Shown here: piece after piece, positions 35,762-54,056 of the stretch
Layout of the letters: the number at the start of each line of letters is the position of its first letter
Numbering within the stretch: the stretch's first letter is position 1
Source: Dehalococcoidia bacterium
GTDB taxonomy: Bacteria; Chloroflexota; Dehalococcoidia; Lucifugimonadales; Australimonadaceae
Length of the DNA: 64,000 nucleotides
Assembly: GCA_965116305.1 (NCBI GenBank)
Contig: OZ220673.1
Span: forward strand, 2,403,362 to 2,467,361
Direction of reading: 5' to 3'
Notes under the pieces: model-generated
What the model was told of the DNA's origin: nothing
Databases searched by the model: none
The model's input: the letters and a program-made list of their open reading frames with translations, nothing else
Program-made: the position numbers and the translations under genes

Positions 35762-36166
35762 CTAGCGCTTGGTGTACTGAGGCGCACGGCGGGCGCGCTT
35801 GAGGCCGTACTTCTTGCTCTCCTTGATGCGCGAGTCGCGCGTCAGGTAGCCGTGGCTGCGCAGCTCCTTCTTGAGGTTCGGGTCGGCCAGGAGCAGTGCA
35901 CGGGCGATGCCGTGGCGCAGCGCGTCCGCCCATGCGGAGACGCCGCCACCCTCGATCTTCGCGACGACGTTGAACCGGTCGGCCGCCGCAGAGATGGTCG
36001 AGAACGGTTGCATGGCGCGCTTCTGCCAGTCTATCCAGGGCAGCGCCTCTTCGAGCGGTTTGCCGTTCACGATCACCGTGCCCGTGCCGCCCGGGTAGAG
36101 ACGCACGCGAGCGATGGCAGACTTCCGCTTCCCCGTCCCGTAGTAGTAGCTCTCCTGCGTCGTCAT
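35762..36166 (-). CDS. rpsI: 30S ribosomal protein uS9
   Basis: 134 aa. ...YYGTGKRKSAIARVRL...LTRDSRIKESKKYGLKRARRAPQYTKR. Confidence 0.95.
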   Translation of the reverse strand: MTTQESYYYGTGKRKSAIARVRLYPGGTGTVIVNGKPLEEALPWIDWQKRAMQPFSTISAAADRFNVVAKIEGGGVSAWADALRHGIARALLLADPNLKKELRSHGYLTRDSRIKESKKYGLKRARRAPQYTKR

Positions 36167-36873
36167 CTGGTCTCGCTCTCCTCGTCCTGTTCGCCCTCAG
36201 CGGTTTCTTCCCCCTCGGGCCCGCCTTCCGGCGACTCGTCTACAGCAGCCTCCTCAGCCTCGGCGACGGCCGTTTCGGGCTCCTCCGCTTCCGGAGCGGC
36301 CTCCGCGACTTCTTCAACCGCCTCTGCTTCGGCAACGGCCTGAGGGGCCTCTTCCTCGGCCGCCGTCTCCTCGCGCACGGCTCGGCGCCTGCGGCGCGCG
36401 GGCGCCGGCGCAGGGGCGGCAGGGGCCTGCTTCGCCTTGCCCATGCCTATGCGGACCTGTGCCTCGTGCGGGTGCGTCGCGGCCGTGTACACCTTCAGCC
36501 GCCGGAGCATCCGGCGGCCAAGCCGGTTCCGGGGCAGCATCCCCTTCACCGCGAGCTCGATCACCCGCTCGGGGAAACGCGTCAGCATCTCTTCCAGCGT
36601 GCGCGTGCGCAGGCCGCCGAGGTAACCGGAGTGGCGGTAGTAGAGCTTCTGGGACATCTTGTTGCCGGAGACCCCGACCTTCGCGGCGTTGACCACGATG
36701 ACGAAGTCGTCCGACAGCTGATGGCGGCTGTAGTCCGGGCGGTGCTTGCCCTGCAGCAGACCGGCGACCTTCGTGGCGAGGCGGCCCAGCCGCTCGCCTT
36801 CCGCGTCCACCACGTGCCACTTCTCCTTACGGGCTGCCGGTTTCGTATGTTTCGTCGTGCGTTGTAGTTGCAT
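36163..36873 (-). CDS. rplM: 50S ribosomal protein uL13 with a C-terminal Ala/Glu/Pro-rich tail of about 90 aa
   Basis: 236 aa. The core is ...KWHVVDAEGERLGRLATKVAGLLQGKH...VKGMLPRNRLGR.... The tail is ...APAPAPARRRRRAVREETAAEEEAPQAVAEAEAVEEVAE...GEQDEESETR. An ATGA overlap with rpsI lies at the extended stop. Confidence 0.85.
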   Translation of the reverse strand: MQLQRTTKHTKPAARKEKWHVVDAEGERLGRLATKVAGLLQGKHRPDYSRHQLSDDFVIVVNAAKVGVSGNKMSQKLYYRHSGYLGGLRTRTLEEMLTRFPERVIELAVKGMLPRNRLGRRMLRRLKVYTAATHPHEAQVRIGMGKAKQAPAAPAPAPARRRRRAVREETAAEEEAPQAVAEAEAVEEVAEAAPEAEEPETAVAEAEEAAVDESPEGGPEGEETAEGEQDEESETR

Positions 36874-37630
36874 CGTTCTCAGGCGGGAATCCCGCGTATC
36901 TCACTTCCTGTAGTGTCAGGCCGCGTGCGGGGAGAACCGTCTCCGCCGCGCCCTGCGCTCCGCTCTCGGTCATCTGCTCGAACGCGCTCACCGTCATCCT
37001 GCCAAGCCCCACGTCCACCAGCGCTCCTGCCGTCCGCCGTACCTGCTGGGGGAGAAAGGCGTTCGCCTCCAACTCCACGACCACCTCATCGCCATCCCGG
37101 AACACCGTTGCCCGCGTCATCCGCCTGACGAACGACTTGCCCGCGGGCTGCGGCCCGCTGAAGGCCCGGAAATCGTGCTCCCCGACGAGGCTTGCCGCTG
37201 CCAGGCACATCGCCCCGGTATCCAGCCGGCGCGCCACCCGGTGGGTGACACCACGGCGCAGCGGAGACGGTGTGCCTCCTTCCAGCAGCCGGTAGCGGTA
37301 CACCCTTGCCCCGGCATGCCTCCTGGGGTCGAACGACAGGGGAACGTCGTACGCCGCGCGTACCGCTATCTGTTCTCCCAGGTAGTGGTTCAGCCCGGCC
37401 ACCACGCGTTCGGTGGGCAACGTGCTCTGTGTATCGAACACCCCCACCTGCGCCAAGGCGTGGACCCCGGCGTCGGTGCGTCCGGCCCCACGAACCGTGG
37501 CCCTGACCGTCGTGAGCGACTCTATTGCGTTTTCGAGTTCCTCCTGTATCGAAGGGGCATTCGCCTGGCGTTGAAACCCGGCATACCCCGTCCCGTCGTA
37601 TTCGATGACGAGCGCGATCCGTCTCGTCAC
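36827..37630 (-). CDS. truA: tRNA pseudouridine(38-40) synthase
   Basis: 267 aa. MTRRIALVIEYDGTGYAGFQRQ...GAGRTDAGVHA. Confidence 0.9.
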   Translation of the reverse strand: MTRRIALVIEYDGTGYAGFQRQANAPSIQEELENAIESLTTVRATVRGAGRTDAGVHALAQVGVFDTQSTLPTERVVAGLNHYLGEQIAVRAAYDVPLSFDPRRHAGARVYRYRLLEGGTPSPLRRGVTHRVARRLDTGAMCLAAASLVGEHDFRAFSGPQPAGKSFVRRMTRATVFRDGDEVVVELEANAFLPQQVRRTAGALVDVGLGRMTVSAFEQMTESGAQGAAETVLPARGLTLQEVRYAGFPPENDATTTHDETYETGSP

Positions 37631-37639
37631 GGTCCTCCT

Positions 37640-37990
37640 CTACACCAACTCCAGCAACGCCATCGGTGCGGCGTCGCCCTTGCGCGGCATGAGCTTCACC
37701 ATCCGCGTGTACCCGCCGGGCCGGTCCGCGTACCTCGGGCCTATCTCATTGAAGAGCCGCTCGACGGCGTGCTTGTCCGGCACTACGGAGAGCGCCTGGC
37801 GCCGGTTGTGCAGCGTTGCGTCTCTCCCCTTGCTGATGATCTTCTCCGCCAGAGCACGCACTTCGCGAGCCTTGGCCTCGGTTGTCGTTACGCGCTCGTG
37901 ACGCAGCAACTGCGAGACGAGATTGTTCATCAGCGCCTCGCGGTGCTCGCTGCGACGGCCCAGTTTGCGGCCTGCTACCCGATGTCGCAT
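37640..37990 (-). CDS. rplQ: 50S ribosomal protein bL17
   Basis: 116 aa. MRHRVAGRKLGRRSEHREALMNNL...TTEAKAREVR. Confidence 0.95.
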   Translation of the reverse strand: MRHRVAGRKLGRRSEHREALMNNLVSQLLRHERVTTTEAKAREVRALAEKIISKGRDATLHNRRQALSVVPDKHAVERLFNEIGPRYADRPGGYTRMVKLMPRKGDAAPMALLELV

Positions 37991-37994
37991 CGCC

Positions 37995-39056
37995 TTACGC
38001 CTCCTCCTCTGCCGTCTGCTCCGAGGCGGCGGCTACAGGGGACAGGTCAGGCGCGCTGTCCTGCGTCCACAAGCCGGGGTGGGTGATGCCTATCTCACGC
38101 AGGCGCTCGTCCAGCTCATCGAGCGACTTCTCGCCGAAGTTCCGGATGCGCAGCAGCTCGTCGCGGTCCCGCTCCAGGACCTCGCCCACCTTGTGGATCG
38201 CGGCGCGCTTCAGGCAGTTGAGCGTCCGCATGGTGAGGTTGAGGTTCTCAACCAGCATGTTGTACTGCGAGGAGGGAATCGCCGCTGCCCACATCATCCG
38301 GTCGCCGTCCTGCGACTGCGACTCCGAGACGGTGGAGAAACGGAAGAAGTGCTCAACCAGCTCCTGCCCTGCCTGGCGCATCGCCTCGGCGGGAGAGACT
38401 GCTCCGTTCGTCCAAACTTCGACGTTCAGCCGCTCGTAGTCCGTGTGCTGCCCGACGCGGGTGCGCTCCACCGTGTAGTTCACCTTGCGCACCGGGGTGT
38501 AGATGGCATCGACGGGCAACTCCCCGATGGGGCGGCCGTCGCCGGACGCCGCGGGTTCGTAGCCCTTGCCGGTCTCCACGTTCAGGTCCATCTCGAGCTT
38601 CGAGTCCGGGCCGTCCAGCGTGGCGATGTGGAACTCAGGGTTCACGATCTCGAAGTCCGGAGACATGATGATGTCTCCCGCCTTCACCTCGCCGGGCCCC
38701 TCGACGCGCAGGCGGAGCTTGCCGGGCCTGCTGGTGTGCGCGCGCAGGTTGATGGACTTGACGTTGAGCAGGATGTCCACCACGTCCTCCTTCACATGGG
38801 GAACGGTGGAGTATTCGTGCTCGACACCCTCGATCTTGACGGAGCTGATAGCCGAGCCGTTGATGGAGCTCAACAGCACGCGGCGCAGGGGGTTCCCCAA
38901 CGTCACGCCGTACCCGCGCGGCAGCGGTTCGATGACGAACATCCCGTAGTTCTCACCGGATTCCGTCATCCTCACCGTGGGTTTGGGCACAGGCGCGAGG
39001 TCGAAACTGGAGTCGCGAGGCTCGTCGTAGCCGTAGTCCAACATCTCTTGTTCCAT
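37995..39056 (-). CDS. rpoA: DNA-directed RNA polymerase subunit alpha
   Basis: 353 aa. The NTD has ...FVIEPLPRGYGVTLGNPLRRVLLSS. The CTD has ...ENLNLTMRTLNCLKRAAIHKVGEVL. Confidence 0.95.
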   Translation of the reverse strand: MEQEMLDYGYDEPRDSSFDLAPVPKPTVRMTESGENYGMFVIEPLPRGYGVTLGNPLRRVLLSSINGSAISSVKIEGVEHEYSTVPHVKEDVVDILLNVKSINLRAHTSRPGKLRLRVEGPGEVKAGDIIMSPDFEIVNPEFHIATLDGPDSKLEMDLNVETGKGYEPAASGDGRPIGELPVDAIYTPVRKVNYTVERTRVGQHTDYERLNVEVWTNGAVSPAEAMRQAGQELVEHFFRFSTVSESQSQDGDRMMWAAAIPSSQYNMLVENLNLTMRTLNCLKRAAIHKVGEVLERDRDELLRIRNFGEKSLDELDERLREIGITHPGLWTQDSAPDLSPVAAASEQTAEEEA

Positions 39057-39108
39057 CCTTCATGCACCCCGGCCCTCCTCGGAGAGCCGGGCGAACCAAG
39101 CCAGCCCG

Positions 39109-39735
39109 TCAGCGCGAGTAGAACTCCACGACCATTCGGGTCTCGATCTTGCTGTCTATGTCCACCGGTTCCGGGTTCCGCGTGATCATCGCGGTCATCT
39201 CGCTCCGGTCGAACTCGATCCACTCCGGGAGCGGCCGCTGACCGACCGAGCGGACGGCGTCCTGCCCGAACTGCGCGTCCTTGCTGGACTGCTTCCAGGC
39301 GATCATCTCGCCCGGCCGGACACGGTAGGAGGGGATGTTCACCTTCCGGCCGTTCACGGTGAAGTGTCCGTGCAGCACGCGCTGGCGGGCCTGCGCCCGG
39401 GAGTCCGCAAAGCCGATGCGGTAGATCACGTTATCCAGCCGGCGCTCCAGCAGTTGCATCAGGTTCTCACCCGTTGCGCCCTGCATCCGGAGCGCGTCGC
39501 TGAAGTAGCGGCGGAACTGGCGCTCCAGCACGCCGTAAGACTGGCGCGCCTTCTGCTTCTCGCGCAGTTGTATCGCCCAGTCCGACGCACGGCGGCGGCG
39601 CGGCTGCTGGTCGCCGGGCGTCTTGCGGCGCTTCTCCACCCCGCACTTGGGAGTGAAGCAGCGCTCGCCCTTCAGGAACAGTTTCTCTCCTGCGCGCCGG
39701 CACTGCCGGCACACGGGGCCTGTGTATCTTGCCAT
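39109..39735 (-). CDS. rpsD: 30S ribosomal protein uS4
   Basis: 208 aa. MARYTGPVCRQCRRAGEKLFLKGERCFTPKC... with a Cys-rich N-terminus. Confidence 0.95.
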   Translation of the reverse strand: MARYTGPVCRQCRRAGEKLFLKGERCFTPKCGVEKRRKTPGDQQPRRRRASDWAIQLREKQKARQSYGVLERQFRRYFSDALRMQGATGENLMQLLERRLDNVIYRIGFADSRAQARQRVLHGHFTVNGRKVNIPSYRVRPGEMIAWKQSSKDAQFGQDAVRSVGQRPLPEWIEFDRSEMTAMITRNPEPVDIDSKIETRMVVEFYSR

Positions 39736-39744
39736 CTTTGCCTC

Positions 39745-40137
39745 TTAGACCCGCCGCCGTTTCGGAGGACGGCAGCCGTTATGCGGAACCGGCGTAACGT
39801 CGCGGATGCTCGTGACGGTCAGACCTGCACCCTGCAGTGCACGGATCGCCGATTCGCGCCCCGCACCGGGACCTCGTACGTACACTTCGACCTGGCGCAG
39901 ACCGAAGTCCATAGCCTTGCGCGCAGCAGTCTCAGAGACGCGCTGCGCCGCGAAGGCCGTGCTCTTCCGCGCTCCCTTGAATCCAACGCCACCGCCTGAG
40001 CCCCAGGCCACAACGTTGCCCTCGGGGTCGGTGAGCGAAACTATCGTGTTGTTGAACGTCGCCGTGATGAACACCTTGCCGCGCGGAACGAACTTCCGCT
40101 CCCGGCGCCGCGTCCTTGTTCTGTTGGCCCTGGCCAA
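39745..40137 (-). CDS. rpsK: 30S ribosomal protein uS11
   Basis: 130 aa. ...[30 protein letters not shown]...[18 protein letters not shown]. Confidence 0.95.
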
Positions 40138-40156
40138 GATGATTCCTCCGCCCGTC

Positions 40157-40537
40157 CTACTTCTTCATCACACGCCGCTTGCCGGCGACCGTCCTGCGGC
40201 CGCTCCGCTTCGTGCGTGCGTTCGTCTTCGTCCGCTGACCGTGCACCGGCAGACCGCGACGGTGCCGCAGCCCCCGGTAAGCGCCGATGTCTATCAACCG
40301 GCGGATGTTGTCATTCACTTCCCGCTTGAGGTCACCTTCCACGGTGTATTCGTGGTCGATGATCTCCCTGACGCGGGCCATCTGCTCGTCCGGCACCTCA
40401 CGGACCTTCGGGTTGCCGGCGATACCGGCCTGCGACGCGATGCGCGTTGCAGCCGTCGGCCCGATACCATGGATGCGCCTGAGCGCTATCTCCACGCGCT
40501 TGTTGTCCGGTATGTCCACCCCTGCTACGCGTGCCAT
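40157..40537 (-). CDS. rpsM: 30S ribosomal protein uS13
   Basis: The start is set at [19 protein letters not shown] (ATG 40537) inside ORF 40157..40624. Confidence 0.95.
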
Positions 40538-40541
40538 GGCC

Positions 40542-40655
40542 TCACCCCTGCTTCTGGTTGTGCCGCGGGTTGGAGCAGATGATCCGCAGCGTGCGGCCAC
40601 GCCGTATCTGACGGCACTTGTCACACCGCGGCTTGACCGATGCTGATACCTTCAC
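40542..40655 (-). CDS. rpmJ: 50S ribosomal protein bL36 (Zn-binding C+ form)
   Basis: GTG 40655 with GGAG upstream. [37 protein letters not shown] is the tail of track ORF 40542..40814. Confidence 0.9.
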
Positions 40656-40671
40656 GTCGTCCCTGCTCCTT

Positions 40672-40890
40672 CTACTTGAACCGGTAGGTGATCCGCCCAC
40701 GGGTAAGGTCGTACGGCGACAGTTCCACCAGCACGCGGTCCCCGGGAAGAACGCGGATGAAGTGCATCCGCATCTTGCCTGACACGTGCGCCAGCACCTC
40801 GTGGCCGTTCGCAAGCTCCGCGCGGAAGGTTGCGTTCGGCAGCGCCTCCATCACCGTGGCCTCGACCTCTATGGACTCTTTCTTTGCCAT
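40672..40890 (-). CDS. infA: translation initiation factor IF-1
   Basis: The start is set at [26 protein letters not shown]... (ATG 40890). It is 72 aa. Confidence 0.95.
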
Positions 40891-40909
40891 GCGGCTTACA
40901 TCTTTCTCC

Positions 40910-41722
40910 CTACTGGTCCACCTTCGTCGTAATGATGGGAGCACCCTCGGTGACGATCACCGTGTGCTCATAGTGGACGGACACCGATCCGTCCACGGTA
41001 ACCACTGTCCAGTCGTCGTCCAGCACGGTCGTGCCATCGCCGCCGAAGTTCACCATCGGCTCGATGGCGATGGCCATCCCCGGACGCAGCAGCGGCCCGT
41101 GTCCACCGGGGCCGAAGTTGGGAACGGACGGCTCTTCGTGCAACTGGGTGCCGATGCCATGCCCGACGTACTCCCTGACGATGCCATATCGACCGCGGCG
41201 CAGGATCTCCTGCTCCACGGCGTGGGAGACGTCGCCAACGCGGTTGCCCGCGCGCGCCTGCGCGATGCCGGCGAACAGCGCCGCACGCCCCGTCTCCATC
41301 TGAGCGCGGATGCCTTCGCTCACGTCTCCAACCGCCACGGTCACCGCGGAGTCGCCGTACAGCCCGTCGACGATCGCCCCGAGGTCCATCCCCACGACGT
41401 CGCCGACCCGGATGACGCGGTCGCCGGGTATGCCGTGGACGATCTCCTCGTTGAGGGAGATGCACAGCGTAGCGGGAAAGCCGCGGTAGCCCTTGAACGC
41501 GGGAACCGCCCCACGGGCCCGTATCTCGCGCTCCGCGATGGCGTCCATCTCCCGCGTCGTCATCCCGGGGGCTATCGACTCGCGCAGCACACGCAGAACC
41601 TCGCCGGTAACGCGCCCAGCCTCCTGCATCCGGTCCAGCTCCTTCGAGCTCTTGACCGTGATGCCGCCGCGCCCGCTCCTGACGCCCAGGTCCCGCAGCA
41701 CCGATTTCGTCTGTGTCATCAT
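40910..41722 (-). CDS. map: type I methionine aminopeptidase
   Basis: The start is set at MMTQTK (ATG 41722). ...[26 protein letters not shown]...[12 protein letters not shown]...AIEPM. Confidence 0.9.
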
Positions 41723-41772
41723 CCGCAAACGCCTATTGTACGTGCCACACGCAGACAACGCAAAGCGCTGTC

Positions 41773-42423
41773 TCATGCGCCAAAGGCCGCCTCCAGGTCT
41801 GTCGTTACCTGTTCCACACTCTGCTGGCCGTTCACCCGCGCCAGCTTCCCCTGCGACTCGTAGTAGCCCACCAGCGGCGCAGTTTGCCGCTCGTACGTCT
41901 CCAGCCGCGCGCGCACCACCTCGGGCTTGTCGTCGTCACGCTGGTACAACTCGCCGCCGCAGAAGTCGCAGCTCCATGCCGTCCGCGGAGGCGAGAACGT
42001 CTCGTGGTACGGCGTCTGGCACTTCCGGCATATCCACCGTCCGGCCAGCCGGCGCACGAGCTCTTCCGTCTCCACTTCTATCAGCAGCGCCGCGGCTATC
42101 TCGCGTCCCTGACCGTCCAGAGCCTCGTCCAGCGCCTTTGCCTGTTCCATCGTCCGGGGGAAGCCGTCCAGCACGTAGCCGTCCCGGGCGTCCGGCTCGT
42201 CCATGCGCTCGAGCACCATCCGGATCGTGACGTCGTCCGGCACCAGCTCGCCCTTGTCCATGTACGTCTTCGCGAGCGCTCCGAGCTCGGTGCCCTCGCC
42301 CAGGTGCTTGCGGAACAGGTCTCCGGACGCGATGTGCGCGCCAGCCCCGCCTTCGGCGATGAGCGCCGCCTGCGTGCCCTTCCCGGCGCCGGGGGGACCC
42401 AACAGCACAACGCGCGCGCTCAT
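41773..42423 (-). CDS. adk: adenylate kinase (Zn-lid type)
   Basis: The start is set at MSARVVLLGPPGAGKGTQA (ATG 42423), which forms an ATGA overlap with the secY stop. The lid is CRKCQTPYH...CDFCGG. Confidence 0.95.
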   Translation of the reverse strand: MSARVVLLGPPGAGKGTQAALIAEGGAGAHIASGDLFRKHLGEGTELGALAKTYMDKGELVPDDVTIRMVLERMDEPDARDGYVLDGFPRTMEQAKALDEALDGQGREIAAALLIEVETEELVRRLAGRWICRKCQTPYHETFSPPRTAWSCDFCGGELYQRDDDKPEVVRARLETYERQTAPLVGYYESQGKLARVNGQQSVEQVTTDLEAAFGA

Positions 42424-43763: not shown

Positions 43764-43766
43764 CGC

Positions 43767-44207: not shown

Positions 44208-44210
44208 CGC

Positions 44211-44399
44211 TTAGCCTTCCTCTCCTGCGCTCACCGACACCAGATGACGCACCTTGTGCACCATCCCCCGGATCGTGGGGCTGTCCTCCCGCACGACCTC
44301 GTGCTGGAGGCGCCGTAGCCCGAGCGCCTTGATCGTGCGGCGCTGGCTCTGTTCGTAACCTATGCCGCTCCGCACCCACTTGATACGCAGTTTCGCCAT
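44211..44399 (-). CDS. rpmD: 50S ribosomal protein uL30
   Basis: 62 aa. MAKLRIKWVRSGIGYEQSQRRTIKALGLRRL... Confidence 0.9.
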   Translation of the reverse strand: MAKLRIKWVRSGIGYEQSQRRTIKALGLRRLQHEVVREDSPTIRGMVHKVRHLVSVSAGEEG

Positions 44400-44401
44400 C
44401 G

Positions 44402-45040
44402 CTAACGCTCCTGAACCTGAGCCGGACGCGGTCCAGAGTCACGGGGTTCACGAGGCTCACGGCGCTCACGGTCGCCCCTGTCTCGATCGCGTCGGGAACT
44501 CGCCTCCCGGCGCAACGGGGTGCGCCGGTCGGGCGCAGTGGGGAGCACCGCCTTCCGCGCGTGCTCCTCCTCGGTCGGAGCGAGCGCCTCCATCTGGCGA
44601 AGCCCCTGGATGGCAGCCTGCACGACGTTGATGGGGTTCCGGCTGCCGAGCGCCTTCGCGACGACGTCCTTCACGCCCAGCGCCTCCATGACCGCACGTA
44701 CGGCGCCTCCCGCCTTGATCCCCGCGCCCGGCTGCGCAGGCCGGAGCAGCACCTGGGATGCGCGGAACTTCGTCGTCACCGAATACGGTATCGTCGAACC
44801 GTTCAGCGTGATCGGCGTCATGTCCTTCCGGGCGATCGTTGCCCCCTTGCGGATGGCATCCGGGACGGCCTTGCCCTTGCCGAAGCCGACCCCGACCTGG
44901 CCCTGGCCGTCGCCCACCACGACAACAGCGTTGAACGTGAGGTTACGTCCGCCCTTCACCACCTTGGCGACCCTGCGGATGTGGACGACCTTCTCTTGCA
45001 GGTCGCTCTGCTCTTCGTTTGAACGCTCAGTCATTACCAT
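44402..45040 (-). CDS. rpsE: 30S ribosomal protein uS5 with a C-terminal Arg/Asp/Glu-rich tail of about 50 aa
   Basis: 212 aa. The core is ...VVHIRRVAKVVKGGRNLTFNAVVVVGDGQGQVGVGFGKGKAV.... The tail is ...RRTPLRREASSRRDRDRGDRERREPREPRDSGPRPAQVQER. Confidence 0.9.
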   Translation of the reverse strand: MVMTERSNEEQSDLQEKVVHIRRVAKVVKGGRNLTFNAVVVVGDGQGQVGVGFGKGKAVPDAIRKGATIARKDMTPITLNGSTIPYSVTTKFRASQVLLRPAQPGAGIKAGGAVRAVMEALGVKDVVAKALGSRNPINVVQAAIQGLRQMEALAPTEEEHARKAVLPTAPDRRTPLRREASSRRDRDRGDRERREPREPRDSGPRPAQVQER

Positions 45041-45944: not shown

Positions 45945-45954
45945 TTCCGTGCTC

Positions 45955-46353
45955 CTACCAGACGTACGCCATCAGCTCCCCGCCGATACCCCGGCGGTAC
46001 GCATCGCGTCCGGTCATGATCCCCTGCGACGTAGAGACGATAGAGATACCGACGCCACCGAAGGCGCGCGGCACGTCCTTCTTCTGCACGTGGATACGCA
46101 GGCCCGGCTTGCTGACCCGCTTCAGCCCGGTTATCCCCGGCTCCTGGTTCACCCTGTAGTGCAACTGCAGCCGCAGCCAGTTCTGCGTCTTCTGCCTCGA
46201 GATGCTGTAGTCGGAGATGTAGCCCTCGCTCTTCAGTATCTCCGCGATGGAGACCTTCACCTTGGAGGACGGCACATCGACGTCAGGGTGGCGGACCAGC
46301 AGCGCGTTCCTGATGCGCGTGAGCATGTCTGCTATGGGATCGGTCATTGTCAT
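45955..46353 (-). CDS. rpsH: 30S ribosomal protein uS8
   Basis: 132 aa. MTMTDPIADMLTRIRNALLV...GIGGELMAYVW. Confidence 0.95.
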   Translation of the reverse strand: MTMTDPIADMLTRIRNALLVRHPDVDVPSSKVKVSIAEILKSEGYISDYSISRQKTQNWLRLQLHYRVNQEPGITGLKRVSKPGLRIHVQKKDVPRAFGGVGISIVSTSQGIMTGRDAYRRGIGGELMAYVW

Positions 46354-46363
46354 AGCGCGCCTC

Positions 46364-46549
46364 TTACCAACTGGCCTTCCGCACTCCGGGCAACTGACCG
46401 GTCAGCGCCATCTGCCGGAAGCAGACGCGGCACAGGCCGGCGAACCGGATGTACGCACGCGGCCTGCCGCACCGGTTGCAGCGGTTCATCGCCCGCACCT
46501 TGTACGGGGCCTCCCGCTTCCACTTCGCCAGTTTGCTCTTCTTCGCCAA
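46364..46549 (-). CDS. rpsN: 30S ribosomal protein uS14, short type-Z Zn-binding form
   Basis: 61 aa. ...[40 protein letters not shown]. Confidence 0.95.
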
Positions 46550-46562
46550 GGCCCTCCGCCTC

Positions 46563-47408
46563 CTAGTTCGTCTGCACTCGTGCGAACGGCATTCCCATCA
46601 GTTCCAACAGACGGAAACCCTCCGCATCCGTGCGCGCACTCGTCGTGATGACCACCTGGAACCCCCGTACGCGGTCCACGCTGCCGTAATCGATCTCAGG
46701 GAACACGATCTGCTCACGGAAACCCAGGGCGTAGTTGCCCCGGCCATCGAAGGAGTCCCGCGGGACACCGCGGAAGTCCCTGATACGCGGCAGCGCCGTC
46801 GAGATCATCCTGTCCAGGAACTCGTACATCCGCCTGCCACGCAACGTGACCATCACGCCGATGGCCTGCCCTTCCCGCACCTTGAAGCCCGCGACCGATC
46901 TGCGGGCCTTCGTGATCACGGGCTTCTGGCCGGTGATCGCCGCCACGTGTCCGGGCGTCGTCTCCAGGGCGCGGGTGTTCGTCAAGCCTTCGCCGAGCCC
47001 CACGTTGAGCACTACCTTCTTCACTTCCGGCGCCTGCATCGCACTCGAGTAGCCAAACTCGTTGATGAGTTGCCCACGGATCTCTTCGCGATAGCGGCCC
47101 ATGAGCCTGGGCAGCGGGCGCTGTTCGACGACCGGCTTCGTCCGCTTCGGGGCCGAACGCCTCCGCGCGGTCCTGCCCGTCGCGGGCGCTTCCGTCTCCG
47201 GCTCAGCGACAGCAACCTCAGCAGCAGGCACTGCTTCCTCAGCAGCCGCGGCAGCGGTCCGTCGACGCGTACGAGGCTGCGGCGCAGACTCTCCGCTTGC
47301 ACTCCGGCGCGTCCGCGTGGCCCGCTTCGGCTTTTCTTCCGCTGCGGCCGGCTCCTGATCCGGTGCGCTGTTTTCAGCGTCTGTCGTCAACTGAACATCC
47401 CCTCGCAT
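46563..47408 (-). CDS. rplE: 50S ribosomal protein uL5 with an N-terminal mixed acidic/basic extension of about 100 aa
   Basis: 281 aa ORF. The canonical uL5 begins near ...[42 protein letters not shown]. The extension is rich in A/E/R/T (..[29 protein letters not shown]..). ATG 47408 overlaps the rplX 3' end by 22 nt. An alternative internal ATG near 47103 would leave a gap of about 285 nt. Confidence 0.75.
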
Positions 47409-47707
47409 TTCTTACACATGCGCGACTTCCTGCCGTCCTCGAGCACCCTGATGGCGATGCGCGTGGGCTGGTTGCACGCCGGACAGACCGGCATGAGCTT
47501 CGACGCATGGATGGGCATCTCCTTGTCGATGATGCCCGCCTGCCGGGCGCCGCCCACGCCCGAGCGTTGGTGCCGCTTGACGATGTTCACACCGTCCACC
47601 AGCACCTTCCCGTTGTCCGGCAAGACGCGCTGTATCTTGCCGCGCTTGCCCTTGTCACGGCCTGCTATCACCATCACCTCGTCGTCCCGCTGCAACCGCG
47701 CCGTCAT
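47387..47707 (-). CDS. rplX: 50S ribosomal protein uL24 (C-terminal CxxC..CxxC Zn-ribbon form)
   Basis: The start is set at [25 protein letters not shown] (ATG 47707, sharing one nt with the rplN stop). The C-terminus is ...[35 protein letters not shown]. Confidence 0.9.
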   Translation of the reverse strand: MTARLQRDDEVMVIAGRDKGKRGKIQRVLPDNGKVLVDGVNIVKRHQRSGVGGARQAGIIDKEMPIHASKLMPVCPACNQPTRIAIRVLEDGRKSRMCKKCEGMFS

Positions 47708-48075
47708 CACAGCACCTCCGGAGCGAGCGAAACGATGCGCATGAAGTTGCGTTCGCGCAACTCCCGGGCCACCGGCCCGAAGATACGCGTACCGCGCGGC
47801 ATCTCCGACTGCGCCAGGATAACTGCCGCGTTGTCGTCGAACCGTATGGTGGAGCCGTCCGGACGCTTGGTCACGGCGCTCGTTCGTACCACGACAGCGC
47901 GCACCACCTCGCCCTTCTTCACGGCGCTGTTCGGCTGCGCGTGCTTGACCGACGCCACGATGATGTCGCCGACCCTGGCGTAACGCCTGCGCGTCCCGCC
48001 GGGGATGTTGAAGCACATGATCTCTTTCGCGCCGGAGTTGTCGGCGACATTCAAGCGCGTCTGCGGCTGAATCAC
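47707..48075 (-). CDS. rplN: 50S ribosomal protein uL14
   Basis: 122 aa. [24 protein letters not shown]... Confidence 0.95.
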
Positions 48076-48947
48076 GACGTCTTCTCCTCGCTCGTCCCTT
48101 CAGCATCCGCTTCTTCGGCGGCCTCCGGCTCCTCTGCATCAGCTGCCGGCTCATCGGCCTCAGCGACCGCAGGGGCGTCGTCGTCACCGGCTTCCTCTAC
48201 CGGTTCCTCAGCGGGCTCCTCGGTCGATTCCTCGACCTCGGCGACCGCGGCCTCGTCTTCAGCGTCGGCCTCTTCCGTCGTTTCCTCAGCAGGCTCGTCA
48301 GCCGGTCCCTCTACCTCTGCAACGGCGGCCTCGTCTTCAGCGTCGGCCTCTTCCGTCGTTTCCTCAGCAGGCTCTTCGGCCGGTTCCTCTACCTCTGCAA
48401 CGGCGGCCTCTTCTTCAGCGTCCGCCTCTTCCACCGGCTCTTCAGCCGCCTCTGCTTCCGTTTCCTCGACCTCAGCGACGGCAGTCTCGTCTTCCGCGTC
48501 TGCTTCTGTTTCCTCGGTCTCTGCAGCGGCAGCTTCGTCCTCTACTTCCACAACGGCAACCGCCTCCTCAGCAGTTTCCTCTGCGGTTGACTCTTCTGCC
48601 TCGACAACGGCAACCGGCTCTTCGACCGCAGCCGCCTCCAGTGTCTCCTCGGCCTCTACGGTCGTGTCGACCTGCGACGCCTGCACGACCTCTTCCCGGT
48701 GCAGCAGTTCGGCGACGCGCCAGCGCTTGGTGCGGGAGAGGGGCCTCGTCTCCATCAGGCGGACGACGTCCCCGACCTTGTACTCGTTCTGTTCGTCGTG
48801 CGCCTTGAATTTCTTCACGTGCCGCACGGACTTGTGGTAGATGGGGTGATGCACGCGGCGCTCCACGACCACGACCACGGTCTTGTCCATCACGTCGCTG
48901 ACCACGCGGCCAACGCGGCTCTTGCGGAGGGCAGCTCTTTCGTTCAT
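48072..48947 (-). CDS. rpsQ: 30S ribosomal protein uS17 with a C-terminal poly-acidic tail of about 200 aa
   Basis: 291 aa. The core is ...[42 protein letters not shown]...[16 protein letters not shown]. It is followed by E/A/T/V/P-rich repeats up to a stop that overlaps the rplN ATG by 4 nt. Confidence 0.85.
48249..48482. repeat. 78-bp tandem repeat (about 3 copies) inside the rpsQ tail
   Basis: GGCCTCGTCTTCAGCGTCGGCCTCTTCCGTCGTTTCCTCAGCAGGCTC... restarts at 48249, 48327 and 48405. It encodes 26-aa units (..[23 protein letters not shown]..). Confidence 0.8.
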
Positions 48948-49153
48948 ACCGCGCCTCCCATGAGTTCGCGTTCCCGCGCCACAGTCAGGATGTGCGCAAG
49001 GCGGCGCTTCGCGTCCCGCAACTCGGACGGGTCCGAGAGTTGGCGCGTCGCCACCTTGAAGCGCAGGTTCATCAGCTCCAGGCGTGTGCTGAACTCCTCT
49101 TCCTTGAGGCGTTCGTCGGACAGCGCCCGTACCGTTTCTATCTTGGCTCTCAT
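48944..49153 (-). CDS. rpmC: 50S ribosomal protein uL29
   Basis: 69 aa. ...[29 protein letters not shown]... Confidence 0.9.
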
Positions 49154-49167
49154 GCTCTATCTCACCG

Positions 49168-49593
49168 CTAGCTGGTAACGAGCGGCTCCTCCCTGCTTAC
49201 CATCCTCGTTTGCACCGGCATCTTCTGCGCTGCGCGCGCAAGCGCTTCCTTCGCAAGCTCCGCGGGCACTCCGCCGACCTCGTACATCACGCGCCCCGGC
49301 TTCACCAGAGCGACCCAGGCGTCCACGGGGCCCTTGCCGCCGCCCTGCCGGGTCTCGGCCGGCTTGCGCGTGATGGGCTTGGCCGGGAACACCCTGATCC
49401 ACACCTTTCCGCCACGGCGGAGGTGACGCGTGATGGCTCGGCGACCGGCCTCGATCTGGCGCGCGGTTATCCAGCCCGCGTCCAGCGTCTTCAGGCCGAA
49501 ATCGCCGAAGCGCACGGAACTGCCCCGCACCGCCATGCCGCGCATGCGACCGCGATGCTGCTTCCGGAACTTAGTTCTCTTCGGTTGAAGCAT
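49168..49593 (-). CDS. rplP: 50S ribosomal protein uL16
   Basis: 141 aa. [19 protein letters not shown]... Confidence 0.95.
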
Positions 49594-50464
49594 CTGCTTC
49601 TCCCTCGTTCTCCGCGTCCTCGACGGCGCCTTCCGGGGCCGCCTCAGGAGTCTCCTCTACTGCCTGCTCCTCCACCGCCTCGGGCTCGCTGCCCTCCACG
49701 GCAACCGGAGCTTCCTCGGGGTCAGCGACTGCCGTCGCAGTGCCCGAGGCCTGCGCAGCAAGCGCCTCCTGGGCCGCGGCGACGATCTCCGCCGGGACCT
49801 CGGGCGCAGCGGGCTGGGCGCGTTCGGGCTCCTTGAGCACGTCGCCCCGGTATATCCACACCTTCACGCCTATCCGACCCATGGTCGTGCTCGCTTCCGC
49901 CAGCCCATAGTCGATGTCGGCGCGCAACGTGTGCAGCGGCACGCGGCCATCCATCACCTTCTCGCGCCGGGCGATCTCCGCGCCGCCCAGGCGTCCGGAT
50001 ACCATCACCTTGATCCCGCGAGCCCCGGCCTGCATGGAGCGCATCACCGCCTGACGCGTCGCGCGACGGTACATCACACGGCGTTCCAATTGGTCCGCCA
50101 CGTTCCGCGCGACGAGGTACGCGTCCAACTCCGGCTGGCGTATCTCCAACACGTTGAGTCGGACCCGCTTCCCGCCCGCGGCGCCTTCCACGAGCTTCCG
50201 CAGCTCGTCCACGCGCTGGCCGCCCCGGCCGATAACGATGCCCGGACGCGCGGTGTGCACGTTGATCGTGATGTCCTGCGTGCTCCGCTCGATCTCCACC
50301 CGCGAGATGCCGGCCTCGGCATACTGCTTGCGGATCACTTCGCGGATGCGCCAGTCCTCCACGACCTGCTCGGAGTACTGCTTGCCCGTTCCCGCGAACC
50401 AGCGCGACTGCCAGCCCTTGATCACGCCAAGGCGGAAGCCGATGGGATGTGTCTTGTGTCCCAC
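49571..50464 (-). CDS. rpsC: 30S ribosomal protein uS3 with a C-terminal Ala/Glu/Pro-rich tail of about 75 aa
   Basis: 297 aa. The core is [24 protein letters not shown]...[12 protein letters not shown]. The tail is ...[13 protein letters not shown]...[28 protein letters not shown]...[10 protein letters not shown] and overlaps the rplP start by 23 nt. Confidence 0.9.
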
Positions 50465-50468
50465 GCGC

Positions 50469-50807
50469 TCAGTCTCCCTGTTCGTCCACGACGATGGTGA
50501 TGTGGCTCGCCTGCCTTGCGATGCGGCTCACGCGGCCCCGCGACCGTGCGCGGAACCGGCGTATCTTCACCGCCTGGTTCGCGTAGGCAGACACCACTAC
50601 CAGCCTCGTCGGGTCCATCTGCTCGTTGTTCTCGGCATTCGCCGCCGCCGACTTCAACAGCGACAGCACTTCCTCCGCCGTAGGGCCCGGCTGGAAGCGC
50701 AACTCGTTGAGCGCAGCCTGAACGGGCCGCCCCTGCAGCGCGCGCAGCAGCGGGCGCACCCGCTTGGGCGATATCCCTACCTGCCTGCCTGTTGCCCGGA
50801 CCGGCAT
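50469..50807 (-). CDS. rplV: 50S ribosomal protein uL22
   Basis: 112 aa. ...[27 protein letters not shown]... Confidence 0.9.
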
Positions 50808-50810
50808 CGC

Positions 50811-51098
50811 CTACCGCCTCACCGAAGACTGACGTTCCGACTTGGAGATATGGCCGCGGAACGTCCGGGTCGGAGCGAACTCGCCCAGCTTGTGTCCCAC
50901 CATGTTCTCCGTGATGAACACCGGGATATGCCGACGCCCGTCATGCACCGCGATCGTCATGCCGAGCATGTCCGGCATGATGGTCGAAGCGCGCGACCAC
51001 GTCGTGATGACCACCTTGGTGCCCGAGTTCTGGGCGCGGGTGACCTTCTTCGCGAGTTTCGGGTGCACGTACGGCCCCTTCTTCACTGAGCGCGACAT
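50811..51098 (-). CDS. rpsS: 30S ribosomal protein uS19
   Basis: 95 aa. [15 protein letters not shown]...[33 protein letters not shown]. Confidence 0.95.
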
Positions 51099-51101
51099 GG
51101 C

Positions 51102-51932
51102 TTACCGCTTCCTCCTGTCACGAACGATGAACACGTCCGTGTGCATACGGCGGCGCGTCTTCGGACCCAGCGCGGGCTTGCCCCACGGGGTCTTCGGGTG
51201 CGTCATCCCGATGCCTGCGCGGCCCTCGCCGCCGCCGTGGGGGTGATCGCTCGGGTTCATCGCGGTACCGCGCGTGTGCGGTCGCTTGCCGAGATGCCGG
51301 TTCCGCCCGGCCTTCCCCAGCGACGCGTTCTTGTGCTCCGCGTTGCCCACCTGGCCTATCGTGGCCTGGCACGTGCTCGGGACACGCCGGATCTGGCCGG
51401 AGGGCAGCCGCAACAGCGCCGTTTCATCGTCACGGGCAAGCAGCTGCGCGCCGGTGCCGGCGCCCCGGCACATCTGGCCGCCCTTGCCGGGCTGCAACTC
51501 GATGTTGTGCACCATCGTGCCGGTCGGGATGTTCCGCAGCGGCATCGCGTTCCCCACGCGTATCTCCGCGTCCGGACCGGACACCAGGGAATCGCCCACC
51601 TTCACCCCACCCGGGGCGAGGATGTAGCGCCGCGCTCCGTCCGCGTACAGCAACAGCGCGATGCGCGCGGAGCGGTTCGGGTCGTACTCGATGGACTCCA
51701 CCTTGCAGGGGACGCCCGGCTTGTTGCGCTTGAAATCGATGTCGCGCCAGGCCCGCTTCGCGCCGCCTCCGCGGTGCCGAACGGTCATCTTGCCGCGGAC
51801 GTTCCTGCCCCCGCTCTTGTGGAGGCCTTTCGTCAGCGGCTTGTGCGGCGACCGCCGCGTCACCTCCGAGAAGTCGGGGCGCACCGCGGCACGAACGCCG
51901 GGGCTGGTGGGGTTCAATCGCTTCAACGGCAT
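51102..51932 (-). CDS. rplB: 50S ribosomal protein uL2
   Basis: The start is set at [14 protein letters not shown] (ATG 51932) inside ORF 51102..52016. ...[18 protein letters not shown]. Confidence 0.95.
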
Positions 51933-51934
51933 CG

Positions 51935-52222
51935 TTACGCTCCCTCGAACAGCTGGATCGTGTCGCCCGGAGCGACGGTAACGATCGCCTTCTTCGTCGC
52001 CGGAGTCCGAAGCCACCGCCCGTTGCGGAGACGCCGGTTCTCTCCGGCGGTGTGCACCATGTTCACGTTCGTAACCTTGACCTCGAAGGCCCGTTGCACC
52101 GCCTCGCGCACCTGCACCTTGTTCGCGGACGGCATCACTTCGAAGACGTACTTGTTCTGCTCCTGCAGCAGGGTCGACTTCTCCGTGATCAACGGCCGCT
52201 TCAATACCTGAAAGATATGCAT
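51935..52222 (-). CDS. rplW: 50S ribosomal protein uL23
   Basis: The start is set at [16 protein letters not shown] (ATG 52222, sharing one nt with the rplD stop). Confidence 0.9.
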
Positions 52223-52875
52223 CAGGCCACCGCCTCCTGCGTTCGCACGCGGCGGGTGTCCGACCATATCTCGTCCGTGCGCCGGACCGCGTCCGGGCTC
52301 ATGAGCACTGCGTCGTAGCGAAGCAGGTCCAACACATTCACGAGGTCGGCGCGGATGGCCTTCACGCGGGGGATGTTCCGCACCGCGACTCCGGTCTGCG
52401 ATTCCGCTCCCAGCACGACGAGCGCCGAGCCTTTCACCTCGAAGGCGGACAGCACTGCCGCCATCGCCTTCGTCTTCTGCTCCATCGAGTCCAGCCCGTC
52501 GACAACGAACAGCCGCTCCGCGGCTACCTTGCCCGACAGCGCCGTCCGGATCGCCTGCCGGCGCATCTGCTTGGGCATCCGCTGCCGGTACGAGCGGGGC
52601 GTCGGCCCGAAAGCCACACCGCCTCCGCGATGGTGCGGCGACTTCCAGGAGCCCTGCCGCGCACGGCCGGTGCCCTTCTGGGAGAAAGGCTTGCGGCCGG
52701 TGCCGTTCACCTGTCCTCGCGTCAGGGTGTTGCTGGAGCCCTGCCGCTGGTTCGCGCGGTGGTACACCAACGCCTGGTGCAGCAGCTCCGGGTTCTCAGG
52801 CGCGCCGAAGACCACGTCGCTGACTTCCAGCGTGTCCGTGCCGTTGGCGCTCACGTCGTACAGAGGAAGTTGCAT
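52222..52875 (-). CDS. rplD: 50S ribosomal protein uL4
   Basis: 217 aa. ...[40 protein letters not shown]. Confidence 0.95.
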
Positions 52876-54056
52876 CAGGAACGCTCCTCCTCTTTGTCGG
52901 GCTGCTCGGCATCCCCGGCCTCGGCTTCGTCGCCCGACTCATCGTCGGCAGGCGCTTCGTCGACCGACGCTTCTTCAGCCGCAGGCTCGTCGGCAGATGC
53001 TTCTTCAGCCGCAGGCTCGTCGGCAGATGCTTCTTCAGCCGCAGGCTCGTCGGCAGATGCTTCTTCAGCCGACGCCTCGTCACCCGACGTCTCGTCGACT
53101 TCGGCTGCGGGCTCTTCAACTTCTGCGACAGGCTCTTCCTCCGACGTCTCCGTCGACGGTTCCTCCGCAGCAGCTTCTTCGGCTTCCGCTGCCGGTTCGT
53201 CTGCAACAGTCTCCTCAACCTCCGCCACCGGCTCCTCCCGGAGAACTTCTTCGGCCTCGGCCGGCTGTTCCGCCGCGACAGTCTCCTCGACTTCCGCGAC
53301 CGGTTCCTCCGCCGCCGGTTCCTCAGCCTCCGTTGCGGTCTCCTCAACCACCGCTTCCTCTACCTCGGCGACCGCCTCTTCCACGACGGCTTCCTCGACA
53401 ACCGGCTCTTCAGGAACGATGCGCTCCGCCACGGGAACGCCGTGTGCGTAGCGCACCATCACGGTGGTGTTGCGCGCGCCGGGAACGGCGCCCCGCACGA
53501 AGAGCAGGTTGCGCTCGGCGTCTACCTCAACGACCTTGAGCTTGCGGACGGTCTTGCGCTTGTTGCCCATGTGGCCGGGCATCTTTTTGCCCTTCAACAC
53601 ACGACCCGGGTACGTCCCCGCGCCGATGGAACCTACCGCCCGGCCACGGTCGCCCTGACCGTGCGTCTTCTGTCCGCCGCCGAAGCCGTGACGCCGCATG
53701 GCGCCCTGGAAACCGCGGCCCTTGGTCGTCGACACCACGTCGACGAGGTCATCGGCCTGGAACTGATTGACCCGTAACTCCTGGCCCACCTTGTAGGAAG
53801 AGACGTCGTCTGAGCCGAACTCGCGCAGGTGCCGTAACCGCGCGCCCGACAACGCCAAGTGTCCCGCCGCGGGTCTGCTCAACTGCTTCACCGAGCCGTA
53901 GCCCAGTTGGACGGCTTCGTACCCGTCGCGTTCCTCGGTGCGGACCTGTGTGACGACACAAGGCCCGACTTCGAGCACGGTGACAGGGATGACCCGCGCC
54001 TCTGAAGCGAAGAGGTGCGTCATCCCTATCTTCTTGCCTATCAGTCCTTCGATCAT
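52875..54056 (-). CDS. rplC: 50S ribosomal protein uL3 with a C-terminal poly-acidic tail of about 180 aa
   Basis: 393 aa. The core is [16 protein letters not shown]...[24 protein letters not shown]...[14 protein letters not shown]. The tail then carries EEPVAEVEE and [10 protein letters not shown] repeats. Its stop shares one nt with the rplD ATG. Confidence 0.85.
52951..53070. repeat. 30-bp tandem repeat inside the rplC tail: three perfect copies plus one degenerate copy
   Basis: GCAGGCTCGTCGGCAGATGCTTCTTCAGCC occurs three times at 52981-53070, preceded by the diverged copy GGCGCTTCGTCGACCGACGCTTCTTCAGCC. It encodes [10 protein letters not shown] three times. Confidence 0.9.

Follow-up and report, generated by a model that had tools for sequence, protein, structure and literature searches.

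Long, mostly acidic extensions probably encoded as parts of six ribosomal proteins in a Dehalococcoidia bacterium

Terminal extensions on several ribosomal proteins of a single bacterium are known from Mycoplasma pneumoniae, in which 11 of 52 ribosomal proteins have N- or C-termini extended by over 20 amino acids (aa) relative to Escherichia coli; these extensions are mostly predicted to be disordered, their function was described as "largely elusive", and such extensions are reported to be common across bacteria (Xue et al. 2022, PMC9534751). The DNA analyzed here is a 64-kb stretch from a Dehalococcoidia bacterium (class Dehalococcoidia, phylum Chloroflexota; assembly GCA_965116305.1, contig OZ220673.1, positions 2,403,362 to 2,467,361; hereafter the window), in which six ribosomal proteins, uS17, uL3, uL13, uS3, uL5 and uS5, carry extensions of about 45-206 aa, past the same >20-residue criterion against the E. 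coli orthologue as judged from Protein Data Bank (PDB) homologues for uS17 and uL3 and from Pfam bounds for the other four. M. pneumoniae resembles this locus in having disordered extensions on multiple proteins, and its uL3 (7ood_b, 287 aa) is also C-terminally extended. The Chloroflexota tails differ in being much longer (as many as 206 aa attached to an 85-aa core), polyanionic, repeat-built and hypervariable in length, composition having been considered on the Chloroflexota side only. Because multi-protein disordered extensions are known from M. pneumoniae, the tails are an extreme and undescribed version of a known phenomenon rather than a new kind. Full-text literature searches returned nothing on acidic ribosomal-protein tails in Chloroflexota, nor was a description found of polyanionic tails that are built of repeats and hypervariable in length on uS17, uL3 or uL13. 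The original prediction, made from the letters of the window, had stated that it knew of no described function for such a set of tails, which is fair for acidic tails and overlooks that multi-protein disordered extensions were already known in bacteria (PMC9534751).

Other described systems share single traits with the tails. Poly-alpha-glutamylation of bS6 by RimK, which alters the translated proteome (PMC4741518, PMC7343187), likewise produces an acidic C-terminal tail on a bacterial ribosomal protein; an ATP-grasp ligase attaches that tail post-translationally, under regulation and on bS6 only, whereas the Chloroflexota tails are encoded, 50-200 aa long, composed of E, A, V, P, D and T, and carried by six other proteins. 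A RimK-type poly-glutamate tail was rejected as an identity, the tails being gene-encoded and both bS6 and rimK lying outside the window. Organellar ribosomes have enlarged members of the same protein families (mitoribosomal PDB chains of 130-237 aa for uS17m and 249-439 aa for uL3m, and ribosomal-protein extensions of the chlororibosome, PMC13481248), and these extensions are largely structured or RNA-replacing in maps, in contrast to the low-complexity, acidic, predicted coil of the tails studied here. Acidic, disordered, solvent-exposed C-terminal segments are a further likeness, shared with eukaryotic and archaeal proteins. The P1/P2 stalk tails are acidic and disordered and end in a conserved factor-binding peptide. 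Identity with an acidic stalk protein (bL12, P1/P2) was rejected, since no Pfam domain and no terminal factor-binding motif were found; only the last 5-10 residues of the tails are conserved, and these coincide with the Shine-Dalgarno (SD) sequence and start of the next gene. The C-terminal extension of uS2/RPSA is also acidic and disordered (PMC4098866).

Base composition is 65-69% GC across the whole window (67% overall). On the minus strand, from 57539 to 35762, rpsL-rpsG-fusA is followed by a canonical S10-spc-alpha block and by rplM-rpsI, and the order S10-L3-L4-L23-L2-S19-L22-S3-L16-L29-S17-L14-L24-L5-S14-S8-L6-L18-S5-L30-L15-SecY is canonical in the window and in the gene tables of relatives. 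The sizes and coordinates originally predicted for the six open reading frames (ORFs) were all exact, and the claimed total of about 700 extra residues compares with a computed total of about 720. The remaining ~23 ribosomal proteins of the operon block are of ordinary length. The six genes and their extensions are as follows:

52875-54056, minus strand: rplC (uL3), 393 aa; ORF with PF00297; PDB uL3 chains cover residues 1-205 only
52878-53435, minus strand: uL3 C-terminal acidic tail, aa 208-393; E 0.34, A 0.24, net charge -72
48072-48947, minus strand: rpsQ (uS17), 291 aa; ORF with PF00366 at residues 13-80; core modelled by AlphaFold2
48075-48692, minus strand: uS17 C-terminal acidic tail, aa 86-291; E 0.36, A 0.26, net charge -89
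36163-36873, minus strand: rplM (uL13), 236 aa; ORF with PF00572; tail aa 146-236 (36166-36438)
49571-50464, minus strand: rpsC (uS3), 297 aa; ORF with Pfam match; acidic tail aa 212-297 (49574-49831)
46563-47408, minus strand: rplE (uL5), 281 aa; ORF with Pfam match; N-terminal extension aa 1-100 (47109-47408)
44402-45040, minus strand: rpsE (uS5), 212 aa; ORF with Pfam match; RD/RE-rich tail aa 160-212 (44405-44563)

Pfam matches, all above gathering cut-offs, were to PF00366 (uS17), PF00297 (uL3), PF00572 (uL13), PF00189 and PF07650 (uS3), PF00281 and PF00673 (uL5) and PF00333 and PF03719 (uS5), and span the canonical parts only (uS17 13-80, uL13 17-135, uS3 40-204, uL5 123-275, uS5 14-153; the uL3 span, 97-180, is the best-matching stretch only). 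No Pfam domain was matched by the extensions of the six proteins. PDB homologues stop at query residue ~85-87 of uS17 and ~204-207 of uL3, with E. coli chains aligning to residues 11-83 and 4-203, respectively, and a PDB sequence search with the uL3 tail returned no match.

Conservation of the reading frame was assessed in three related loci, designated L001 (NCBI metagenome-assembled genome (MAG) GCA_034422795.1), L003 (a Dehalococcoidia bacterium MAG whose uS17 core is 97% identical) and L002 (an ENA long-read contig with obvious frameshift errors). Tail lengths in the window, L001 and L003 are 206, 124 and 190 aa for uS17 and 186, 190 and 114 aa for uL3; in the window and relatives the uS3 tail has 86, 85 and 84 aa (84-85 in L001-L003) and the uS5 tail 53, 43 and 55 aa, the number of REP repeats in the latter differing in L003. 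Length differences between related tails are always multiples of 3 nt and the same last residues are reached, with amino-acid identity between the window and relatives at 89-98% in cores and 57-79% in tails. In L001-L003 the N-terminal extension of uL5 is in frame and overlaps the end of rplX, its ATG or GTG falling at the same position; no SD precedes the alternative start M103. For uL13, compared at the protein level only, relatives of 86-91% overall identity conserve the architecture and the end. Among 66 uL3 homologues whose tail starts with PVAER, tails run from 22 to 193 aa in 45 or more distinct lengths, with one outlier of 393 aa (P0284) in which uL3 and uL4 were called as a fusion; the end is EEERS or EEGRS in 63 of the 66, and many of the cores are at least 94% identical to the query. 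Alignment to related genomes, which had been proposed as a check, thus gave tails that are present in frame and hypervariable in length.

Selection was gauged by the proportions of nonsynonymous and synonymous differences (pN/pS), by Nei-Gojobori rates (dN/dS), and by a control in which both sequences were moved by 1 or 2 nt. In the annotated frame the tails have a pN/pS of 0.09-0.57 (uL3 0.25-0.31, uS3 0.24-0.57, uS5 0.09-0.11) and zero stops in any genome, and in shifted frames a pN/pS of about 0.5-4 with 1-15 stop codons; for the uL5 extension the values are 0.25-0.35 against 1.1-4. An excess of substitutions at wobble positions is seen in the annotated frame only. dN/dS, approximate on low-complexity sequence, is 0.05-0.48 in tails and 0.02-0.11 in cores. 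Codon periodicity in the tails is strong, GC content at the three codon positions being 0.89 (GC1), 0.43-0.56 (GC2) and 0.63-0.74 (GC3). The claim that the tails are translated, and are neither an ORF-calling artefact nor read-through, was borne out by a frame kept over many indels, by in-frame pN/pS and by period-3 repeats. That the extensions are genuine translated parts of core ribosomal proteins, in frame with the conserved core, is strongly supported by these sequence comparisons, and purifying selection acts on the tails in the annotated frame only, keeping composition and charge rather than exact sequence.

Repeats were located with Tandem Repeats Finder, and together with two of the gene junctions they are:

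48204-48507, minus strand: 78-nt (26-codon) tandem repeat, 3.9 copies, within the uS17 tail (family D1)
52957-53332, minus strand: in-frame repeats of the uL3 tail, 30 nt in 3.8 copies (52957-53071) and 72 nt in 2.6 copies (53148-53332) (family D2)
44439-44471, minus strand: 9-nt repeat of the uS5 tail
48072-48075, minus strand: rpsQ-rplN GTGA stop/start overlap, with SD GAGGAGAA within the last tail codons
52873-52877, minus strand: rplC-rplD TGATG stop/start overlap, with SD GAGGAGGAG within the last tail codons (KEEERS)

Every repeat period found within the acidic tails is divisible by 3 (78, 72, 60, 48, 39, 30, 21, 18, 15, 12 and 9). Tails of different genes share DNA only in stretches of 20-40 nt at 65-95% identity, on which ground gene conversion or a shared module between tails was rejected; because no long identity is shared, each tail grows by its own in-frame duplications. 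The tails lengthen and shorten as GAR/GCN/GTN-rich units of 9-78 nt are duplicated in tandem, or slip, in frame. A phase-variable simple-sequence contingency locus was also rejected, all periods being multiples of 3 and the frame being kept in 63 of 66 uL3 homologues. The common mechanism originally proposed therefore survives as a mode of mutation that the tails have in common, in-frame slippage, together with similar selection on composition, and not as a shared module or shared DNA.

Codon choice in the tails departs from that of the cores, with GCG at 0.29 against 0.55, GTG at 0.17 against 0.57 and GAG at 0.61 against 0.77. NNG codons are avoided in the tails, and by synonymous resampling SD-like strings come out 2-3 fold depleted relative to core codon usage (21 observed and 57 expected in uS17, 20 observed and 45 expected in uL3); this avoidance of NNG codons and SD-like strings probably explains the lower GC3 of the tails. 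GAGGAG(A/G) returns only at the tail ends, as the SD of the next gene. Other junctions include an ATGA at rplM/rpsI (uL13/uS9) and a 23-nt overlap at rpsC/rplP (uS3/uL16). The last tail codons thus double as the SD and start of a translationally coupled downstream gene. Coupling overlaps had been offered as evidence of translation, and the uL3/uL4, uL13/uS9 and uS3/uL16 junctions were as claimed; the rplN start is GTG (within GTGA) and not ATG, and because the tail ends double as SD sequences the overlaps alone would not prove translation. An Rfam scan over the tail region gave no family, and, compared with neighbours, the long tails have a mildly weaker minimum free energy per nt that falls in the range of EF-G and rpoA, so a function of tail mRNA at the RNA level was rejected for want of an Rfam family or unusual structure. 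Antisense to the uS17 and uL3 tails lie Ser/Ala-rich ORFs at 47941-48840 (plus strand, 299 aa) and 52630-53451 (plus strand, 273 aa), most likely a by-product of composition, namely of the GAR/GCN codons on the opposite strand.

Four of the extensions (uS17, uL3, uL13, uS3) are polyanionic and two (the uL5 N-terminus and the uS5 tail) are of mixed charge and Arg-rich. Glu makes up 26-38% and Ala 24-28% of the former, which also contain Val, Pro, Asp and Thr and have net charges of -89 (uS17), -72 (uL3), -27 (uL13) and -24 (uS3); the uS17 tail is devoid of K and R over about 200 residues. The uL5 extension is an R/A/E/P mix, acidic and Arg-rich, with a net charge of +4, and the tail of uS5 is rich in RD/RE. 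In a layout common to several tails, a short Arg-rich part next to the core precedes an acidic stretch: in the window this is seen in uL13, whose basic linker PAPAPARRRRR is followed by an acidic segment, and in relatives in uS5, uS17 and uL5. Almost all bacterial ribosomal proteins are strongly basic, and the untailed ones of the window have isoelectric points (pI) of 10-11.8; the whole tailed proteins are strongly acidic, with pI 4.05 and net charge -79 for uS17 and pI 4.31 and net charge -57 for uL3. Non-ribosomal proteins of the window have pI 4.8-6.3 (SecY 10.9) and D+E fractions of 0.11-0.17 (SecY 0.04). A halophile-type acidic proteome was ruled out because the proteins other than the tailed ones have ordinary pI.

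A VAEVEE-type motif had been put forward as shared among the tails. All instances quoted for it are present in the sequence, and shared peptide words were tested against composition-preserving shuffles. uS17 and uL3 share four 7-mers where 0.67 were expected (P=0.026; P=0.07 for 6-mers), and for uL13, uS3 and uL5 shared words were not above shuffles. Words of the form VAE[VA][ED] occur in 44 of 114 diverse uS17 tails, a recurrence that we read as a favoured composition and pattern, not a proven motif. The motif claim thus reduces mostly to composition, with uS17-uL3 alone marginal.

Rarity was measured in 76 non-Chloroflexota operon loci (1.32 Mb), out of 80 obtained from a contig scan with the uS17 core alignment. 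A six-frame scan of the window for acidic low-complexity segments found exactly four, on the uS17, uL3, uL13 and uS3 tails, and none in ~45 kb of other window genes; this confinement to ribosomal proteins further supports the coding reading. The same scan found 2-4 segments per locus in six related 20-kb Chloroflexota loci, most of those checked against gene tables being in ribosomal-protein tails; two exceptions are found across from other genes, and for one of these a spurious antisense frame was confirmed (L003 segment 137-268, rejected). The 76 control loci from other phyla contained 2 segments in 1.32 Mb. Control uS17 tails measured -1 to 3 aa without exception in the 76 operons, uL3 tails -4 to +7 aa save for six Clostridia with 22-32 aa, and uS5 tails 7-31 aa. 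Control uS3 tails reached 109 aa, with 47-109 aa common in Actinomycetota, Bacteroidota and Oscillospiraceae and about 50-90 aa routine in the first two, so that the length, on which this likeness rests, of the 86-aa uS3 tail of the window is ordinary; in the uS3-extended control genomes uS17 and uL3 are unextended, and the multi-protein pattern is lacking. The lengths of uS17 and uL3 are highly unusual and those of uS5 and uL13 moderately so. All six proteins are therefore extended as originally claimed, uS3 being unexceptional in length. An exhaustive HMMER search with the uS17 tail alone against 1.84 billion representatives gave one irrelevant match, in a setting where bias filters strip low-complexity matches.

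Homologue searches seeded with words from the tails, and hence biased to tail-bearing sequences, retrieved long forms of uS17 (160-368 aa), uL13 (195-323 aa) and uL3 (230-398 aa) by the hundreds from metagenomes and MAGs. Named sources are nearly all labelled Chloroflexi bacterium, Dehalococcoidia bacterium or SAR202 cluster, with no cultured organism among the matches; the exception among named uS17 matches is a MAG labelled Alphaproteobacteria bacterium (P0029). Tails of at least 60 aa were found on 111 of 114 uS17 homologues (median 121 aa, 34% acidic, net charge about -34). More distant Chloroflexota contigs combine extended proteins differently:

L083: uL3 349 aa, uS5 266 aa and uS17 235 aa extended
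L084: uS3 271 aa, uL5 236 aa and uS17 249 aa extended; uL3 235 aa (short tail only)
L085: uL5 403 aa and uS17 about 300 aa (split by gene calling into 203 aa and a frameshifted 102-aa ORF) extended; uL3 210 aa, near-normal
L086: uL4 375 aa, uS5 289 aa, uL5 272 aa and rpoA 437 aa extended

Short tails only were found in L030 and L038 (a Chloroflexia MAG and another Chloroflexota MAG). uL5 ranges over 236-403 aa in the other lineages, and the 403-aa uL5 of L085 (11562-12773) holds five copies of a 34-35-aa Arg-rich/acidic unit (AKPARRRKRATAEAEPEQPDVAVADADAETKDAEE). From this mosaic of extended proteins across contigs a clade-wide propensity with lineage-specific outcomes would follow, and the extensions appear characteristic of a large, so far uncultured Chloroflexota group (Dehalococcoidia-class MAGs), in which the uS17 tail and the uL5 N-terminal extension look oldest. 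Chloroflexota extensions are not always acidic, because some turn basic: uL4 of L086 (5701-6828) has a basic tail rich in Ala, Lys, Pro and Thr, the uS17 tail of L086 (10001-10699) goes from acidic to Lys-rich toward its end, and a SAR202 uL13 (P0213) has a basic Ser/Thr/Lys tail. The extended rpoA of L086 runs from 19955 to the contig end.

For structure, AlphaFold2 was run on uS17 with a 114-sequence alignment, a single-sequence model having given a low predicted local distance difference test score (pLDDT) even in the core. The oligonucleotide-binding (OB) fold core (residues 10-85) was modelled at pLDDT 82-97 and residues about 90-291 as a featureless coil at pLDDT 41-50, in agreement with the disorder prediction that had been suggested as a check. 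The uS17 tail is thus predicted to be a disordered coil; disorder of the other five extensions is suggested by composition only. Charge-rich intrinsically disordered proteins behave as extended polyelectrolytes, as is established in polymer science, and the tails, about 45% charged and nearly all negative, should do so as well. The tails would project outward, since the N-terminus of uL5 and the C-termini of uS17, uS3, uS5, uL3 and its neighbour uL13 lie on what we take to be solvent-exposed surfaces.

We consider it probable that the whole is best explained by encoded, disordered, mostly polyanionic surface tails that are resized by slippage, selected for composition and endowed with a putative solubilizing role. 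The functional part of this explanation is tentative: by analogy, the tails may act in cis as charge neutralizers and solubilizers before assembly and as an anti-sticking brush after it. Before assembly, a tail in cis would keep a very basic, aggregation-prone ribosomal protein soluble and off non-cognate RNA; the tails would then project from the subunits' solvent side, forming a flexible brush of negative charge, which short Arg-rich proximal segments (in uL13, uL5, uS5 and some uS17 homologues) may anchor on rRNA, and after assembly they could shield the ribosome surface from sticking and aggregation. In yeast, dedicated chaperones serve uL3 (Rrb1), uL4 (Acl4), uL5 and uL18 (Syo1), uS3 (Yar1) and uS5 (Tsr4) (PMC6648895). 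The likeness is a functional analogy only, namely the guarding of basic, aggregation-prone ribosomal proteins before assembly; yeast chaperones are trans-acting folded proteins, whereas the Chloroflexota element would act in cis and is putative. Five of the seven families extended in the Chloroflexota loci are clients of these chaperones (hypergeometric P=0.02 among 28 universal proteins, post hoc). The boldest version, in which the clade evolved an encoded polyanionic ribosome coat (~200 or more negative charges from uS17, uL3, uL13 and uS3) as an in-cis chaperone or anti-aggregation device with its size tuned by slippage, is doubtful.

Several observations weigh against the preferred explanation. 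Tail length is hypervariable, and because close relatives manage on 22-60 aa and some lineages have a normal uL3, long tails are not essential; neutral drift could account for much of the length. Some Chloroflexota lineages keep a uL3 of 210-218 aa, basic tails (uL4 of L086, uL13 of SAR202) misfit a purely polyanionic brush, and GC3 (0.63-0.74) and codon usage of the tails differ from those of the cores (GC3 0.82-0.89). Of the supporting evidence, dN/dS comes from protein-guided alignments and is approximate (the frame-shift control being internal), the homologue searches favour tail-bearing sequences, solvent exposure of the termini is presumed, and the overlap with chaperone clients is post hoc, yeast chaperones mostly binding eukaryote-specific segments.

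In the main rival account the tails are tolerated passengers, translated and functionless, with slippage-prone GAR/GCN sequence expanding at the 3' ends of genes; tails would persist because a frameshift or premature stop would uncouple the downstream gene, and only harmless acidic, non-sticky, non-hydrophobic compositions would be tolerated. We regard this as possible and rather unlikely. It would account for uL3 tails of 22-193 aa among close relatives, for identity of 57-79% in tails against 89-98% in cores, for the lineage-specific mosaic of which protein is extended (some lineages having a uL3 of normal length), for tail ends that are the SD sequences and starts of coupled genes, and for codon usage atypical of highly expressed genes. 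It fits poorly with an in-frame pN/pS well under 1, with uS17 tails that last across deep divergence (lineages at 57-60% core identity), and with the convergence in composition of independent tails; moreover, ~720 residues per ribosome are a substantial cost that selection should purge if useless, the coupling argument fails for uL5, whose extension is N-terminal, and secY, adk and map lie in the same coupled operon without tails.

Specific interaction modules, in which short linear motifs (e.g., xVAEVEEx) or bulk charge recruit a defined partner or bring about some collective state (control of hibernation or aggregation, condensates, membrane or nucleoid exclusion, cation or polyamine buffering), are improbable. 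(A/P)VAEVEE(P/T) in uS17 and uL3 lies slightly above shuffles (P=0.026), VAE[VA][ED] is found in 44 of 114 uS17 tails and an 18-residue block is conserved among close uL3 relatives, but the motif is not above chance in uL13, uS3 and uL5, VAEVEE repetition is largely duplication history because the motif is part of repeat units that were duplicated recently, the window shows no evident candidate for a partner gene, and no PDB chain resembles the uL3 tail. A shade more improbable are cleavable pro-sequences that act in synthesis or assembly and are then proteolysed off mature ribosomes, for which a precedent exists in the bL27 N-terminal extension removed by Prp in Firmicutes. Nothing direct speaks for them; they are compatible with the cis-chaperone idea and with a conserved boundary, GVPVAERI(I/V)PEEP, inspected in uL3 only, while no protease gene lies in or beside the operon in the window and relatives, and hypervariable length is unexpected for a processed propeptide with a defined role. 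Scarcely credible is an artefact, with tail DNA being spacer, assembly error or a spurious high-GC open frame and the proteins canonical. Long spurious ORFs are common at 67% GC, other frames over the tails are partly open, and the long-read assemblies L002 and L085 are frameshifted inside tail repeats; yet dozens of independent assemblies include none with a stop at the canonical ends, 63 of 66 uL3 homologues stay in frame despite 45 or more lengths, pN/pS under 1 and the wobble excess belong to the annotated frame (GC1 0.89, GC2 0.43, GC3 0.63), and no Rfam family or unusual RNA structure was found. The frame-shift control and the uL3 homologue frames effectively refute it.

If encoded tails of the kind preferred here stay on the ribosome, surface charge and hydrodynamic size would be altered in an abundant, uncultured soil and marine phylum, with disordered tails making up, by rough estimate, about 10% more ribosomal-protein mass. 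Retained tails would offer a natural system for probing the role of disordered ribosomal-protein extensions, a question left open by Xue et al. 2022. Were the polyanionic coat true, it would be a bacterial, hard-wired counterpart of eukaryotic dedicated chaperones and of RimK polyglutamylation, and ribosome surface electrostatics would be an evolvable, strain-level trait. Hypervariable in-frame repeats in universal marker genes could also resolve strains in phylogenomics and typing. Standard tryptic proteomics would be blind to such tails because that of uS17 is without K or R for about 200 residues.

Annotation of these genes is affected in two ways, as gene callers mis-start uL5 and uL13 and long-read assemblies frameshift within repeats. 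The uL5 of L001 (at 11600) is called as 179 aa, with the conserved N-terminal extension omitted, and a public uL13 record (P0121, 100% identical) starts 20 residues late, without the conserved N-terminus MQLQR(T/I)TKHTK. Frameshifted or split calls fall within repeat-rich uS17 tails and in rplE (L002 2170-3214 and 3899-4737, L085 10001-10880), which suggests that tail repeats are hotspots for assembly or consensus errors in long-read metagenomes.

Elsewhere in the window, rpoA (37995-39056, minus strand) encodes an RpoA of 353 aa with a short acidic end, ...PVAAASEQTAEEEA, a miniature of the ribosomal tails. The product of rplX (47387-47707, minus strand), a uL24 of about 106 aa, ends in a CxxC...CxxC zinc-ribbon-like segment within 35 residues, and uS14 of the window is of the short, 61-aa zinc type. 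In L085, a 293-aa hydrophobic, membrane-like ORF with no Pfam match is located between rpsK and rpsD (19453-20334). A thiamine pyrophosphate (TPP) riboswitch (RF00059, 71.7 bits, E=3.9e-12) was found at 13838-13947 on the plus strand of the window, directly upstream of a 500-aa ORF (14008-15510, plus strand).

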